Shown piece by piece: positions 43,886 to 50,380 of a stretch of DNA of 64,000 bases. This DNA comes from Enterobacteria phage P922, in the sequence record OR999189.1; one strand, given 5' to 3'. Position 1 is the first letter of the stretch. Each line of letters starts with the position of its first letter. A program made the position numbers and the translations under genes. Under the pieces are notes generated by a model, which was not told the DNA's origin, did no database searches, and was given only the letters and a program-made list of their open reading frames with translations.

Positions 43886-44154
43886 TGTTTGTTGTTCATA
43901 CTATTTATGAAAATGAAGGTAATACTACACGTGATTACGGCCACGTAAATCAATTTTTTAGATGCAATCCAGAATTCCGAGCTCAAAAAGACGAACGAAT
44001 TTTTAAAAAATGTGTAGAACAAGGTTTCATTTACGTCAAGCACTGGATGCAAGGAAATAAAGTTAGAACTACATATCATAAGTCTTTGCCTGAGCTTAAT
44101 GATGAATTGATTTATAATAGAGCTGTAAACCAAACCCTGAAGGATGAGCAATGA
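43885..44154 (+). CDS. hypothetical protein (89 aa)
   Basis: coupled ORF upstream of ligase. Confidence 0.45.
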   Translation: MFVVHTIYENEGNTTRDYGHVNQFFRCNPEFRAQKDERIFKKCVEQGFIYVKHWMQGNKVRTTYHKSLPELNDELIYNRAVNQTLKDEQ

Positions 44155-45611
44155 TTCTTAAAATTCTGAATGAAATAGCATCTATTGGATCAACTAAACA
44201 GAAGCAAGCAATTCTTGAAAAGAATAAAGATAATGAATTGCTTAAACGAGTATATCGTCTGACTTATTCTCGTGGGTTACAGTATTATATCAAGAAATGG
44301 CCTAAACCTGGTATTGCTACCCAGAGTTTTGGAATGCTGACTATTACTGATATGCTTGACTTCATTGAATTCACGTTAGCTACTCGGAAATTAACTGGCA
44401 ATGCAGCAATTGAGGAATTAACTGGATATATCACCGATGGTAAAAAGGATGATGTTGAAGTTTTGCGTCGAGTTATGATGCGAGACCTTGAATGTGGTGC
44501 TTCAGTATCTATTGCAAACAAAGTTTGGCCAGGTTTAATTCCTGAACAACCTCAAATGCTGGCAAGTTCTTATGATGAAAAAGGCATTAGTAAGAATATC
44601 AAGTTTCCAGCCTTTGCGCAGTTAAAAGCAGACGGAGCTCGGTGTTTTGCTGAAGTCCGAGGCGATGAATTAGATGATGTTCGTCTTTTATCACGAGCTG
44701 GTAATGAATATCTAGGATTAGATCTTCTTAAGGAAGAGTTAATCAAAATGACTGCTGAAGCCCGCCAGATTCATCCAGAAGGTGTGTTAATTGATGGCGA
44801 ATTGGTATACCATGAGCAAGTTGAAAAGGAACCAGAAGGCCTAGATTTTCTTTTTGATGCTACTGAAATCAGTAAAGCTAAAGACTTCACAGAAGTAGCT
44901 GAATCTCGTACTGCTTCTAATGGAATCGCTAATAAATCTTTAAAGGGAACCATTTCTGAAAAAGAAGCCAAATGCATGAAGTTTCAGGTCTGGGATTATG
45001 TCCCGTTGGTAGAAATATACGGTCTTCCGGCGTTTCGTTTAAAATATGATGTACGTTTTTCTAAACTAGAACAAATGACATCAGGATATGATAAAGTAAT
45101 TTTAATTGAAAACCAGGTAGTAAATAACCTAGATGAAGCTAAGGTAATTTATAAAAAATATATTGACCGAGGTCTTGAAGGTATTATTCTCAAAAATACC
45201 GATGGATTGTGGGAAAATGCTCGTTCAAAAAATCTCTATAAATTTAAAGAAGTAATTGATGTTGATTTAAAAATTGTAGGAATTTATCCTCACCGTAAAG
45301 ACCCTACTAAAGCAGGTGGATTTATTCTTGAATCAGAATGCGGAAAAATTAAAGTAAACGCTGGTTCAGGTTTAAAAGATAAAGCTGGTGTAAAATCACA
45401 TGAACTTGACCGTACTCGCATTATGGAAAACCAAAATTATTATATTGGAAAAATTCTAGAGTGCGAATGCAATGGTTGGTTAAAATCTGATGGCCGCACT
45501 GATTACGTTAAATTATTTCTTCCAATTGCGATTCGTTTACGTGAAGATAAAACTAAAGCTAATACATTCGAGGATGTATTTGGTGATTTTCATGAGGTAA
45601 CTGGTCTATGA
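44151..45611 (+). CDS. 30: ATP-dependent DNA ligase
   Basis: 486 aa; MILKILNEIASIGSTKQKQAILEK...; adenylation lysine motif KADGAR. Confidence 0.9.
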   Translation: MILKILNEIASIGSTKQKQAILEKNKDNELLKRVYRLTYSRGLQYYIKKWPKPGIATQSFGMLTITDMLDFIEFTLATRKLTGNAAIEELTGYITDGKKDDVEVLRRVMMRDLECGASVSIANKVWPGLIPEQPQMLASSYDEKGISKNIKFPAFAQLKADGARCFAEVRGDELDDVRLLSRAGNEYLGLDLLKEELIKMTAEARQIHPEGVLIDGELVYHEQVEKEPEGLDFLFDATEISKAKDFTEVAESRTASNGIANKSLKGTISEKEAKCMKFQVWDYVPLVEIYGLPAFRLKYDVRFSKLEQMTSGYDKVILIENQVVNNLDEAKVIYKKYIDRGLEGIILKNTDGLWENARSKNLYKFKEVIDVDLKIVGIYPHRKDPTKAGGFILESECGKIKVNAGSGLKDKAGVKSHELDRTRIMENQNYYIGKILECECNGWLKSDGRTDYVKLFLPIAIRLREDKTKANTFEDVFGDFHEVTGL

Positions 45612-45796
45612 AAGCTTACTTAGAAACAATTGTCGTTGCTCAAAAAGAAGGTGGAGATGTTTCTACTTCTGTATCACAAATCGTTCTTGAATTTGTAGAT
45701 GCATATGCTTATAATAAATTTACAGAAACATTTGATGCCTATGAAAAAGGTCCGAAGTTTGAAATATACCGTACTCTCTTACCACTAGATTATTAA
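45608..45796 (+). CDS. hypothetical protein (62 aa)
   Basis: ATGA-coupled to ligase; followed by hairpin. Confidence 0.4.
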   Translation: MKAYLETIVVAQKEGGDVSTSVSQIVLEFVDAYAYNKFTETFDAYEKGPKFEIYRTLLPLDY

Positions 45797-45812
45797 AGGC
45801 CTTCGGGCCTTT
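45796..45812 (+). terminator. stem-loop AAAGGCC-TTCG-GGCCTTT (weak terminator or RNA stability element)
   Basis: perfect 7 bp stem with UUCG loop; A/T-rich after. Confidence 0.45.
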
Positions 45813-45848
45813 AATTTTATAAATAGAATAAACACTAGAGAGGATATG

Positions 45849-47942
45849 ATGGAACTCATTACAGAATTATTTGACGAAGATACTACTCTTCCGATTACAA
45901 ACTTAAATCCAAAGAAGAAAATACCGCAAATTTTTTCAGTTCATGTTGATGACGCAATTGAACAACCAGGCTTTCGTTTATGTACCTATACATCTGGAGG
46001 TGATACTAATCGCGATTTAAAAATGGGCGATAAAATGATGCATATTGTTCCTTTTACATTAACTGCTAAAGGTTCAATTGCTAAATTAAAAGGTCTCGGT
46101 CCAAGCCCAATTAATTATATCAATTCAGTTTTTACTGTTGCAATGCAGACGATGCGTCAGTATAAAATTGATGCCTGTATGCTCCGTATTCTTAAGTCTA
46201 AAACTGCTGGTCAAGCTCGACAAATTCAAGTTATTGCTGATAGACTTATCCGTAGTCGTTCAGGTGGCAGATACGTCCTTCTTAAGGAACTCTGGGATTA
46301 CGATAAAAAGTATGCATATATTCTTATACATCGCAAAAATGTATCACTAGAAGACATTCCAGGAGTTCCGGAAATTAGTACCGAGCTCTTTACTAAAGTT
46401 GAATCGAAAGTCGGCGATGTTTATATCAATAAAGATACTGGTGCTCAAGTAACTAAAAATGAGGCAATTGCAGCATCTATTGCGCAAGAAAATGATAAAC
46501 GCTCTGACCAAGCTGTAATCGTTAAAGTTAAAATTTCCCGTAGAGCAATTGCGCAAAGTCAATCATTAGAATCTTCTAGATTTGAAAGCGAATTATTCCA
46601 GAAGTATGAATCTACTGCAGCTAATTTCAATAAACCTGCTACTGCTCCTTTAATTCCAGAAGCAGAAGAAATGAAGCTTGGAATTAATTCATTAGCTTCT
46701 AAAACTAAGGCAGCAAAAATTATTGCTGAAGGAACTGCAGATGAACTTCACTATGACTATAAATTCTTTTCAAAAAGTGAGGTTAATGAAGTTTCTGAAA
46801 AAATTAAAGATGTAATTCTTAATGCGATTAAAAATGAACCAACTACTTCAATAAAATGTTTAGAGAAATACGCAGCAGCTGTTAATAAATTCTTTGAAGA
46901 ATACAAAGATAAATGGCTTGATAAACATAATAAAACCCGTAAAGGACAGCCAGATGAAGTCTGGGAAGAAATAACTAAAAATTCCTGGAACGCAGCAAAA
47001 ACTAAATTCCTCAAACGAATGATTTATAGTTTTTCTGGAATTGGTGCAGGTCCAATGATTGATATTACCATTGCACGCGATGGTTCTAAATATACTCCAT
47101 CGCAAAAGCGCGGCATTAGAGAGTATTGTGGATCAGGATATACTGACATCAATAATCTTCTTTTAGGCCGCTACAATCCAGAACGATATGATGTAATGAG
47201 TGAAAAAGAAATTGAATCTGCTATAAATAACTTAGATTCAGCTTTTGAAAATGGTGACCGTATACCAGAAGGCATTACAGTTTATCGTGCTCAAAGTATG
47301 ACTGCTCCTATATACGAAGCACTAGTTAAAAATAAAGTGTTCTATTTCAGAAATTTTGTATCTACTTCTTTAACTCCTATCATTTTTGGACGTTTTGGAA
47401 TTACACATGCTGGTATTGGTCTTTTAGAACCAGAAGCTCGTAATGAATTGACAGTTGATAAAAATGAAGAAGGAATAACTATTAATCCAAACGAAATAAG
47501 AGCGTATAAAGAAAATCCTGAATACGTTAAAGTTCAAATAGGATGGGCAATTGATGGAGCTCATAAAGTTAATGTTGTATATCCAGGAAGTCTCGGAATA
47601 GCAACAGAAGCTGAAGTTATTCTACCGCGCGGATTGATGGTCAAAGTTAATAAAATAACTGATGCTTCTAATAATGACGGAACAACATCTAATAATACAA
47701 AACTCATTCAAGCTGAAGTTATGACTACAGAAGAACTCACCGAATCAGTAATTTATGATGGAGACCATTTAATGGAAACTGGTGAAGTAGTTGCAATGAC
47801 AGGTGATATTGAAATAGAAGACAGAGTTGACTTTGCATCATTTGTTTCATCAAACGTTAAACAGAAAGTAGAATCATCTCTTGGAATTATTGCGTCTTGC
47901 ATAGATATTACAAACATGCCTTACAAGTTCGTTCAAGGATAA
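45849..47942 (+). CDS. alt: Alt ADP-ribosyltransferase (packaged, modifies host RNA polymerase)
   Basis: 697 aa from second ATG; MELITELFDEDTTLPITNL... matches T4 Alt; C-terminal R / STS / EAE ART signature. Confidence 0.85.
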   Translation: MELITELFDEDTTLPITNLNPKKKIPQIFSVHVDDAIEQPGFRLCTYTSGGDTNRDLKMGDKMMHIVPFTLTAKGSIAKLKGLGPSPINYINSVFTVAMQTMRQYKIDACMLRILKSKTAGQARQIQVIADRLIRSRSGGRYVLLKELWDYDKKYAYILIHRKNVSLEDIPGVPEISTELFTKVESKVGDVYINKDTGAQVTKNEAIAASIAQENDKRSDQAVIVKVKISRRAIAQSQSLESSRFESELFQKYESTAANFNKPATAPLIPEAEEMKLGINSLASKTKAAKIIAEGTADELHYDYKFFSKSEVNEVSEKIKDVILNAIKNEPTTSIKCLEKYAAAVNKFFEEYKDKWLDKHNKTRKGQPDEVWEEITKNSWNAAKTKFLKRMIYSFSGIGAGPMIDITIARDGSKYTPSQKRGIREYCGSGYTDINNLLLGRYNPERYDVMSEKEIESAINNLDSAFENGDRIPEGITVYRAQSMTAPIYEALVKNKVFYFRNFVSTSLTPIIFGRFGITHAGIGLLEPEARNELTVDKNEEGITINPNEIRAYKENPEYVKVQIGWAIDGAHKVNVVYPGSLGIATEAEVILPRGLMVKVNKITDASNNDGTTSNNTKLIQAEVMTTEELTESVIYDGDHLMETGEVVAMTGDIEIEDRVDFASFVSSNVKQKVESSLGIIASCIDITNMPYKFVQG

Positions 47943-47945
47943 ATC

Positions 47946-50003
47946 ATGGAACTTATTACAGAATTATTTGACGGCGCTTCGGCGCCGGTTGTTAACTTAA
48001 ACCCGAAGCATAAAATACCTCAAATTTTTGCTATTCAAGCAGGTGAAGAAAGCGTGCTTCCTGGATTTAGATTTTGTACATACACCTCTGGCGGTGATAC
48101 AAATAAAAACGTTAAGCCAGGCGATAAAATGATGCATATCGTAATGATAGGTGTCAATGAAAAGCTATCATTAGTTAAACTTAAAAACTTAGGTGGAAAT
48201 CCAATTGGTGTCATTAATGCGGTTTTTGATACTGCTCTTCAAACAATGAAACAGTATAAAATTGATGCATGCTTATTCCGCGTACTAAAGAGCAAAACAA
48301 ATGGAGCTGCTCGTCAAATGCAAGTTATTGCCGACCGTTTAGTACGTACTAAAGGAGCAGGTCGATATGTTCTTTTAAAGGAAATCTGGGACTATGATAA
48401 GAAATATGCATATATTATGGTTTACCGCAAAAATGCCAATTTAGAAGACATTCCAGGTGTACCTCCTATTTCAACTGAGTTATTCACAAAGGTTGAATCA
48501 AAGGTTGGTGATGTTTATGTAGATGTTAAAACAGGTAATGCTGTTCCTAAAGCTGTTGCTGTTGCTGCTTCTATTGCTTTAGAAAATGATAAGCGCACAG
48601 ATCAAGCTGTAATTCAGAAAACTAAAATTAGTCGTCGATTAGCAGCACAAGCTCAATACTCTACTGTCGATGCTTCACTTCAGGGTGATAGCTTCGCCGC
48701 TAAGAAATATCAAGAGTTTGAATCTAAAGTTCCGGTATATAAAGCAGAAGGACCAATGAACTCCGGCGTTATTCAGGTTGGTTCAAACTTCAGCAAAGGA
48801 GCTATCGGTGGTATGAGGAGTGCTTCTCGTTTTAAATCTAGTGATTATGAACTAGAAAGCTTCCGAAATCATATTGCATTGGCCCATGCGCGTTTACGTG
48901 ATCCATCTATTAAATTACAGAGCGATATAACATATCAAGGTTCTCAAGAATATTTAAAGAATAAAGAATTTTTTGATTATAAAACTGATAAAATTTTAAG
49001 CGATCTTGCTGACATTAATATTTCTAATAGCTTTGATGTTATTAAGAAAATTGTCAATGATTTAGTTAAAGGTTCTAAAGCCACGCCAGACGAAAAGGTA
49101 GCTATTGTTCAATTTGTCATGAATGGCATTTATAAATTGATTAATGAGTCTGCTTCTCAAGCGTATGAATATGCAAGTACTGAAGTACCCCCAAAAGGAT
49201 TAACTCAGGCTGAGTCTGATGTAATTGAAGATTATTGCGCGGATTCATATGTTGAAATGAACTCGTTCCTTTTAGGTAAACCGGATTCTACTCGTGAAGA
49301 ATACATGGAACGAGCTATTAAACACATCGAGACAATGGATTCTGCCTTTGCCAAAGGATCAGTTCTTCCTCCAGGAACTACGCTTTATCGTGGACAAGAA
49401 GTTACCTTTAAAACTTTACGTCATAATATTGAAAATAAAATGTTCTATTTTAAGAACTTCGTATCCACATCGCTTAAACCAAATATCTTCGGTGAGTATG
49501 GTAAAAACTATATGGCTCTAGATGATTCCAGTACAGTATTTTCTGGTGAAGGAGAAGGTTCAGTTGACGCAGAAGATTTGATGCATATGGGCAGTCATTC
49601 TTCTTATGCGAATGAAGATGCTGAAACTAGCGTGGGTATGGTAATTAAAGGAGCTGAGCGAATCAAAGTTATCGTTCCGGGTCATTTATCAGGATTTCCA
49701 TCAGAAGCTGAAGTTATTTTACCACGTGGAATTTTGCTGAAGATTAATAAAGTGAGTACGTACATGATGAAAGAAACTGCTTATAACAAGTATTTAATCG
49801 AAGGCACAATCGTTCCTCCTTCTGAACAATTAGAAGAATCGGTATATGATGGCGATCATCTGATGGAAACTGGTGAAGTTCGTCCAATGGCTGGGTTTAA
49901 TCAATTCCTTGTAGAAGAATCAAAAGAAGAGGAAAACGAAGTTTCTCAAATCTTAGCTTCTTTGGTTAACATCAACGGAATGTCTAAAAAGTTCAAGATG
50001 TAG
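47946..50003 (+). CDS. Alt-like ADP-ribosyltransferase paralogue
   Basis: 685 aa; N-terminus MELITELFDGASAPVVNLNPKHKIPQIF parallels Alt; conserved FVSTSL and SEAEVILPRG motifs; middle region divergent. Confidence 0.75.
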   Translation: MELITELFDGASAPVVNLNPKHKIPQIFAIQAGEESVLPGFRFCTYTSGGDTNKNVKPGDKMMHIVMIGVNEKLSLVKLKNLGGNPIGVINAVFDTALQTMKQYKIDACLFRVLKSKTNGAARQMQVIADRLVRTKGAGRYVLLKEIWDYDKKYAYIMVYRKNANLEDIPGVPPISTELFTKVESKVGDVYVDVKTGNAVPKAVAVAASIALENDKRTDQAVIQKTKISRRLAAQAQYSTVDASLQGDSFAAKKYQEFESKVPVYKAEGPMNSGVIQVGSNFSKGAIGGMRSASRFKSSDYELESFRNHIALAHARLRDPSIKLQSDITYQGSQEYLKNKEFFDYKTDKILSDLADINISNSFDVIKKIVNDLVKGSKATPDEKVAIVQFVMNGIYKLINESASQAYEYASTEVPPKGLTQAESDVIEDYCADSYVEMNSFLLGKPDSTREEYMERAIKHIETMDSAFAKGSVLPPGTTLYRGQEVTFKTLRHNIENKMFYFKNFVSTSLKPNIFGEYGKNYMALDDSSTVFSGEGEGSVDAEDLMHMGSHSSYANEDAETSVGMVIKGAERIKVIVPGHLSGFPSEAEVILPRGILLKINKVSTYMMKETAYNKYLIEGTIVPPSEQLEESVYDGDHLMETGEVRPMAGFNQFLVEESKEEENEVSQILASLVNINGMSKKFKM

Positions 50004-50062
50004 TTTACAAGTCCCTCGTGTTGTGTTATAATAATTTTACTTACATAACATGAGGAACACAA
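50004..50062 (+). promoter_or_regulatory. T4-type early promoter plus structured leader (duplicate of cassette at 34192)
   Basis: GTTTACAAGTCCCTCGTGTTGTGTTATAATAATTTTACTTACATAACATGAGG. Confidence 0.55.
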
Positions 50063-50063
50063 A

Positions 50064-50354
50064 ATGAAATCTTCTTTACGCTTTTTAGGTCAAGAGCTTG
50101 TAGTTGAAGGCGTTATTCCTGCTGATAACGCTTTTAATGAAGCAGTTTACGATGAATTTATCAAAATTTTTGGAACAGATAAAAAGTTCGGAATTTTTCC
50201 TTCTGAAAATTTCTCAAAGCCAGAACAGACTGAAAGCATTTTCCAGGGTGTAGTAACAGGTAAATTTGAGTCAGAAGCTCCGGTAAAAATTGAAGTTTAT
50301 ATTGAAGACAGTTTAGTTGCTTCAGTTGCTGCTTTTATTTCATTCCGTAAATAA
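50064..50354 (+). CDS. hypothetical protein (96 aa)
   Basis: GAGGAACACAAAATG start. Confidence 0.45.
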   Translation: MKSSLRFLGQELVVEGVIPADNAFNEAVYDEFIKIFGTDKKFGIFPSENFSKPEQTESIFQGVVTGKFESEAPVKIEVYIEDSLVASVAAFISFRK

Positions 50355-50358
50355 AAAT

Positions 50359-50380
50359 ATGGGGACCGAAAGGTCCCCAT
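50359..50380. terminator. bidirectional terminator between convergent + and - transcription units
   Basis: ATGGGGACC-GAAA-GGTCCCCAT with A-run on one side and T-rich on the other. Confidence 0.6.

Follow-up and report, generated by a model that had tools for sequence, protein, structure and literature searches.

The window analysed here is a stretch of 64,000 nucleotides of Enterobacteria phage P922 (sequence record OR999189.1). At its alt locus lie two adjacent open reading frames (ORFs), both encoding full-length relatives of Alt, an ADP-ribosyltransferase (ART) of phage T4. A preliminary description made from the sequence alone had placed them at 45849-47942 (697 amino acids) and 47946-50003 (685 amino acids), and these coordinates and lengths were reproduced. 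We refer to the two as ORF A and ORF B. They are old paralogues with a common build and a common set of catalytic residues, and it is likely that both are injected enzymes in which a shared delivery module carries different effector parts.

Two Alt paralogues and their catalytic domains

45849..47942, + strand: ORF A, alt gene with the allele type of T2 and T6, 697 amino acids (698 if the ATG at 45846 is used)
47286-47288, 47361-47363, 47607-47609 and 47613-47615: ORF A catalytic residues R480, S505, E587 and E589
47946..50003, + strand: ORF B, second full-length Alt paralogue, 685 amino acids
47946..48650, + strand: ORF B N-terminal alpha/beta domain, residues 1-235; proposed head-core targeting/delivery module
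48651..49175, + strand: ORF B all-helical middle domain, residues 236-410; most diverged; proposed target-selection module
49176..49838, + strand: ORF B ART catalytic domain, residues 411-631, up to the predicted gp21 cleavage site
49389-49391, 49464-49466, 49704-49706 and 49710-49712: ORF B catalytic residues R482, S507, E587 and E589
49839..50000, + strand: ORF B predicted C-terminal propeptide, 54 residues, with the family-wide YDGDxLxETGE motif

ORF A and ORF B align from end to end with 41% identity (BLASTP, E 2e-161), and a full-length alignment of this quality means that their similarity is not due to chance. The identity amounts to 68% in the N-terminal 235 residues, 20-21% in the middle (236-410), 34-36% in the ART domain (411-631) and 44-46% in the C-terminal tail. 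Three motifs, YR(A/G)Q, FVSTSL and EAEVILPRG, are present in both proteins. The preliminary description had called the second ORF a diverged Alt paralogue that shares the Alt N-terminus and a C-terminal catalytic signature with the first, and these figures and motifs support it in each respect. Its statement that the two differ through the middle third is correct for the middle domain but too narrow, since the ART domain is strongly diverged too. The loop before the E-x-E motif reads PGHLSGFPSEAE in ORF B versus PGSLGIATEAE in ORF A.

Both proteins match PHROG 802 over the whole profile (E 4e-273 for ORF A, 5e-255 for ORF B), homologues of the ORFs carry precomputed assignments to PF26846 (Tevenvirinae_ADPRT), and RefSeq labels both genes 'Alt-like RNA polymerase ADP-ribosyltransferase'. 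The AF2 models have the same build for both, with an alpha/beta N-terminal domain, an all-helical middle, an ART domain and a tail. Two adjacent ATGs at 45846-45851 allow ORF A to begin as MMELITE (698 amino acids) or MELITE (697 amino acids), and the second of these corresponds to the beginning of T4 Alt, MELITELFD. The choice between the two starts may be the reason why published propeptides of T4 Alt have either 6 or 7 residues and why its catalytic glutamate is numbered 577 rather than 576.

The catalytic domain was recognised in both ORFs by Pfam PF03496 (ADPrib_exo_Tox), with 129 bits for ORF A and 73 bits for ORF B against a cut-off of 23.4. A lack of conserved catalytic residues in the second ORF was one of the outcomes that would have refuted the preliminary description, but upon alignment the R / S-T-S / E-x-E set is kept: R482, S507-T-S509 and E587-A-E589 of ORF B are in register with R480, S505-T-S507 and E587-A-E589 of ORF A. 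In an alignment of 54 diverse homologues, moreover, R482, S507, E587 and E589 of ORF B do not vary, and S509 hardly does. The T4 Alt counterparts by alignment are R478, S503, E574 and E576. A T4 Alt mutant designated 'E577A' is catalytically dead (PMC11404850). Allowing for an offset of one residue, we infer that this position is E576 of the 682-residue T4 Alt, the second Glu of E-x-E, which aligns with E589 of both ORFs.

The closest folds to ORF B are arginine or protein ARTs (Vis, C3, iota-like). A search of PDB sequences gave no match with ORF B and only weak matches to CdtA and iota Ia with ORF A, and PADLOC and NCBIfam scans of both ORFs gave no match. Between S-T-S and E-x-E, residues 518-538 of ORF B form an acidic insert that is modelled with low confidence. 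Compared with T2, T6 and RB68, the ratio of nonsynonymous to synonymous substitution (dN/dS) is 0.04-0.05 for ORF B, with dS up to 0.29, and 0.03-0.08 for ORF A; within ORF B it is 0.02 in the N-terminal domain and 0.05 in the ART domain. ORF B is under strong purifying selection and, with its family matches and catalytic residues, counts as a maintained, functional gene.

Distribution, the T4 remnant and recombination

The window is from a phage of the Tequatrovirus type, and its alt locus matches EcNP1 and Nami at 98.8% identity over the 4.8 kb around the pair. When these 4.8 kb served as the homology query, 541 phage records were matched, 365 of them covering at least 80% of the query. The middle segment of ORF B is found at an identity of at least 90% in 401 phage records, including T2, T6, RB68 and AR1, and at about 45% in 44 records; the ones sampled from these 44 belong to Dhakavirus (WG01, CLBP2) or to further phages outside Tequatrovirus such as vB_EcoM_005. 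T2, T6 and RB68 have the identical layout of alt (697 amino acids), paralogue (685 amino acids) and alt.-3. The locus is the T4 alt locus in its usual two-gene Tequatrovirus state.

In T4 itself, alt is followed by alt.-1 (61 amino acids) and alt.-2 (67 amino acids), both hypothetical proteins. The first corresponds to residues 1-56 of ORF B (95% identical) and the second to residues 62-116 (98%), whereas their identity to ORF A is only 58-62%. Two PHROG families of 61 and 67 positions, phrog_23015 and phrog_15247, give much better scores with ORF B than with ORF A and were most likely built from alt.-1 and alt.-2. The T4 sequence lacks the following segment.

48290..49988, + strand: 1,699-bp segment absent from T4, with CTAAA at 48285-48289 and again at 49984-49988

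By nucleotide alignment, T4 also lacks one A of an A-run near 48105, and this 1-nt frameshift splits the remnant into alt.-1 and alt.-2. The deletion junction was found intact, with a 100-nt probe, in 91 records that include T4 stocks, RB55, RB59 and ACG-C40. According to the T4 record, alt.-1 and alt.-2 stem from an old duplication in which the first part of alt was copied. We reject that origin on the identities given above, because the first 235 residues of ORF A are virtually those of T4 Alt and because the deletion junction could be mapped. The full-length state is ancestral, because a positional orthologue of ORF B is present in another genus, and T4 is a deletion derivative and thereby a natural ORF B knock-out.

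These results bear on two points that the preliminary description had left unsettled. T4 has no full-length Alt paralogue next to alt, only the alt.-1/alt.-2 remnant of one. Nor is the pair novel, as had been hoped: about 400 records besides T2 and T6 have it, RefSeq labels both of its genes 'Alt-like', and it has been described in print (PMC13600099).

The view that ORF A is essentially T4 Alt also requires correction. The two are 70% identical overall, with 100% in the N-terminal 235 residues, 33% in the middle, 66% in the ART domain and 95% in the tail, so that the termini are T4-like and a different allele occupies the centre. Two forms of alt proper exist within Tequatrovirus, one with a T4-type middle in 174 records and one with the type of the window in 317. 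AR1 combines a T4-type alt with an intact ORF B, and therefore the two positions assort independently.

Dhakavirus WG01 (L006 1-5910) likewise has full-length Alt paralogues in tandem at this locus (ORF201, ORF200 and ORF199). ORF199 pairs with ORF B both by position and as its best match (48%), and ORF200 pairs in the same way with ORF A (66%). WG01 differs in having three copies, where the window has two and T4 has one and a remnant, and in N-terminal domains that have diverged by genus. The first of its three genes, ORF201, is only about 33% identical to either paralogue of the window and would thus represent a third effector type.

Comparison between the genera separates the parts of these proteins. 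The N-terminal domains cluster by genome, with 68% identity between paralogues both within the window and within WG01 versus 43-47% between Tequatrovirus and Dhakavirus. In contrast, the middle and ART domains cluster by type (82% for ORF A and ORF200, 52% for ORF B and ORF199, 29% for ORF A and ORF B). At the protein level, the ART domain of ORF A is 94% identical to that of ORF200 across genera, while the N-terminal domain is only 46% identical. Similarly, positions 46529-47785 of the window, which encode the middle and ART domain of ORF A, have 80.4% nucleotide identity to WG01, and the neighbouring genes, including 54 and 48, have 66-70%. This pattern indicates that a putative effector cassette has been exchanged between genera.

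Recent gene conversion was considered as the source of the similar N-termini of ORF A and ORF B and was rejected for the recent past, since substitution at synonymous sites between the two has reached saturation (dS 1.6 over the N-terminal part). The saturation means that the shared N-terminus reflects constraint or old homogenisation and not recent copying; older homogenisation within genomes is possible, because the N-terminal domains cluster by genome.

Two A/B fusion genes were also encountered. One, P0006 (L007 4001-6055, a Logan SRR24155011 contig), is of ORF A type over its N-terminal ~195 residues and of ORF B type over the remainder, and it is the sole alt gene between alt.1 and alt.-3 in its contig. 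The other, P0004, is a similar chimera with an ORF A type N-terminus of ~105 residues and an ORF B type remainder. Both look like products of unequal recombination in which the 5' thirds, conserved between the tandem genes, were the sites of exchange.

Neighbouring genes and expression signals

44151-45611: DNA ligase gene 30
45608..45796, + strand: alt.1, 62 amino acids, Pfam PF24647 Phage_blade, conserved upstream neighbour
45795..45812, + strand: GC-rich hairpin AAAGGCC-TTCG-GGCCTTT right after the alt.1 stop, read from the sequence
45818..45825, + strand: consensus of T4 late promoters, TATAAATA, 23 nt ahead of the ORF A start
50004..50032, + strand: early-type sigma-70 promoter for alt.-3, TTTACA, 17-nt spacer and TATAAT, with 11 of 12 matches and a TG extended -10
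50064..50354, + strand: alt.-3, 96 amino acids, DUF5498, conserved downstream neighbour of the alt array
50359..50380, no strand assigned: bidirectional terminator hairpin between alt.-3 and the converging gene 54

The pair is flanked by DNA ligase gene 30 and alt.1 on one side and on the other by alt.-3, followed by genes 54 and 48 on the opposite strand. Both ORFs thus sit between gene 30/alt.1 and alt.-3/gene 54, the T-even position of the Alt family. The start of alt.1 overlaps the end of gene 30 by 4 nt, and its product matches the recent Pfam family PF24647, 'Phage blade protein', with E 1e-29. Some records give alt.1 the odd label 'siderophore-interacting protein'.

The hairpin at 45795-45812, which was missed by a simple terminator scan, probably insulates the late unit of the alt genes from early and middle transcription upstream. 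It is followed by the late-promoter consensus. ORF B has no promoter of its own, the next promoter-like site occurring only after its end, and a gap of 3 nt separates the ORF A stop from the ORF B start, with a GGA Shine-Dalgarno within the end of ORF A. A second copy of TATAAATA, a motif whose count is at chance level, lies within ORF A at 47222-47229, about 720 nt upstream of ORF B, and could act as an internal late promoter for ORF B.

The promoter predicted at 50004-50032 would mark the end of the alt late unit. Because this strong early-type promoter directly follows the ORF B stop, alt.-3 and the alt genes, for all their common name, probably differ in the time of their expression. The frameshifted alt.-2 of T4 extends across the alt.-3 promoter.

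Proposed packaging and target choice, and rival explanations

T4 Alt (gpAlt, 682 amino acids) is a head-packaged, injected NAD (nicotinamide adenine dinucleotide):arginine ADP-ribosyltransferase, and it has in common with the two ORFs its locus, its three-part build, the R / S-T-S / E-x-E residues and gp21 motifs at both ends. ORF B differs from it in sequence, with an overall identity of 42% that falls to 34% in the ART domain and to 11% in the middle domain. T4 Alt is a protein of the prohead core, present in about 40 copies and ejected with the DNA (PMC5694885, PMC9026906), is cleaved by gp21 at ITE-6 and LTE-619 (PMC5694885), and is dispensable for head assembly (PMC9026906, PMC5694885). 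These cleavage motifs align with ITE-6 and LTE-632 in ORF A and with ITE-6 and LEE-631 in ORF B, which we take as predicted sites, and both cleavage-site Glu residues are invariant in an alignment of 16 sequences. The predicted mature masses after trimming by gp21 are 70.2 kDa for ORF A and 69.2 kDa for ORF B.

We consider it likely that both ORFs encode late-made, head-packaged, gp21-trimmed and injected arginine ARTs, with a shared delivery module, exchangeable effector cassettes and different host targets. ORF A and ORF B would be co-transcribed from the late promoter at 45818, and translation of ORF B would be coupled to that of ORF A. The shared N-terminal module would take both proteins into the prohead core, where the gp21 head protease would trim them after Glu6 and after Glu631/632, and both would then be injected with the phage DNA to act as arginine-specific mono-ADP-ribosyltransferases of the Alt family. 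The helical middle, the ART domain and the loop before E-x-E would together form the effector cassette that sets target choice. Such a cassette could move between phages by recombination, with the delivery module staying matched to the head of its own phage. As ORF A and ORF B have unlike cassettes, we expect each to modify its own set of host proteins.

Parts of this arrangement resemble known systems. In logic only, it is like that of T4 IPI-III, with their capsid targeting sequences, and of polymorphic toxins, where a conserved delivery part is joined to a variable, exchanged effector; gp21 cleavage is a further likeness. The delivery part here is a folded domain of 235 residues with a proposed targeting role, compared with a peptide of 10-19 residues in IPI-III. 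The mono-ART toxins of the R-S-E clade (Vis, C3 exoenzymes, iota Ia/CdtA/CPILE-a, VIP2, Certhrax) differ in being secreted bacterial toxins with other delivery domains, whereas here a phage-specific N-terminal domain and a helical domain precede the ART domain.

T4 Alt ADP-ribosylates Arg265 of RNA polymerase alpha, and ORF B might be a redundant second dose that is packaged and injected like Alt, acts on this residue and the other Alt substrates, and adds quantity or robustness. Its architecture, catalytic residues and processing motifs are those of ORF A, T4 lost ORF B without a known defect, and the substrate range of T4 Alt is established as broad. Nevertheless we think redundancy unlikely, as the middle domains are 20% and the ART domains 34-36% identical, the loop before E-x-E differs, the B type is distinct across genera (52% to Dhakavirus ORF199 versus 29% to ORF A), and ORF B is under strong purifying selection. 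Two types that have been kept for so long would not be expected under pure redundancy. A mainly structural role in the head core, with a vestigial enzyme activity, would account for the N-terminal domain being the best conserved (dN/dS 0.02) and would suit the description of Alt as a component of the prohead core (PMC9026906). Such a role is quite improbable, however, given that the catalytic R, S and E-x-E are invariant, that dN/dS in the ART domain is 0.05, that Alt is non-essential for head assembly and that T4 builds heads without ORF B.

A change of chemistry has a similarly small chance of being correct. ORF B would then use a different acceptor or donor, attaching NAD-capped RNA as T4 ModB does, or modifying nucleic acid instead of protein arginine. 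ModB is an ART of the same R-S-E clade that RNAylates proteins, and the acidic, low-confidence insert at residues 518-538 could be read in this direction; yet ORF B has E-x-E rather than Q-x-E, its closest folds are arginine or protein ARTs (Vis, C3, iota-like), and its sequence has no feature that points specifically to RNA or DNA substrates. We give the least credence of all to ORF B being dispensable cargo, a decaying duplicate nearing loss. This would agree with its deletion in the T4 lineage (91 records) and with its replacement by single A/B fusion genes in some contigs. It does not agree with an intact ORF B in 401 records at an identity of at least 90%, with dN/dS of 0.04-0.05 at dS up to 0.29, or with the positional orthologue kept in another genus.

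Several observations count against our preferred reading of two injected enzymes with different targets. The late-promoter motif TATAAATA is found 11 times in the window against 9.3 expected, which is at chance level, and because of this count the argument for the copy at 45818 is its position, not enrichment. We infer different targets from sequence divergence alone, and the target sets could overlap heavily, T4 Alt being promiscuous. The literature searched yielded no virion proteome covering ORF B and no proteomic or biochemical study of its packaging, cleavage, injection or activity. In addition, T4 and 90 other records do without ORF B, which is dispensable at least on laboratory hosts.

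The tandem pair itself is already known as a genomic feature and is annotated in hundreds of records. Partial and full duplications of alt, among them a tandem full-length duplicate at this locus in Aeromonas phage 44RR, were noted in 2006 by Nolan et al. (PMC1524935). A 2026 paper on a Tequatrovirus reported 'two paralogous Alt-like proteins' that are 43% identical, and suggested functional divergence (PMC13600099). The literature searched held annotation-level remarks on the second Alt paralogue and no functional study of it. The present analysis adds the mapping of the T4 remnant, the dimorphism of alt, and the proposed division into delivery module and effector cassette, none of which we found stated in the papers searched. 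These three points should be of moderate interest to specialists.

Extending the preferred reading of injected enzymes with different targets, we tentatively put forward a wider picture that seems to us quite possible. T-even phages would inject an arsenal of ARTs, two in T2, T6 and this phage and three in Dhakavirus, each with a target set fixed by its cassette; ORF B would have a distinct job, and T4 would be its natural knock-out. If this is true, that job might be, for example, the disabling of a host defence or of a translation factor as the DNA enters.

Nearly all knowledge of injected phage ARTs comes from T4, which is atypical twice, having lost the second enzyme and retaining an Alt whose central cassette is unlike that of T2, T6 and most relatives. 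What is found for the targets of Alt therefore cannot simply be assumed for other T-even phages, therapeutic isolates among them. The role of a second injected ART could readily be studied by genetics in T2 and T6, and the proposed split between delivery and effector parts suggests a route by which other payloads may be packaged into T-even heads.

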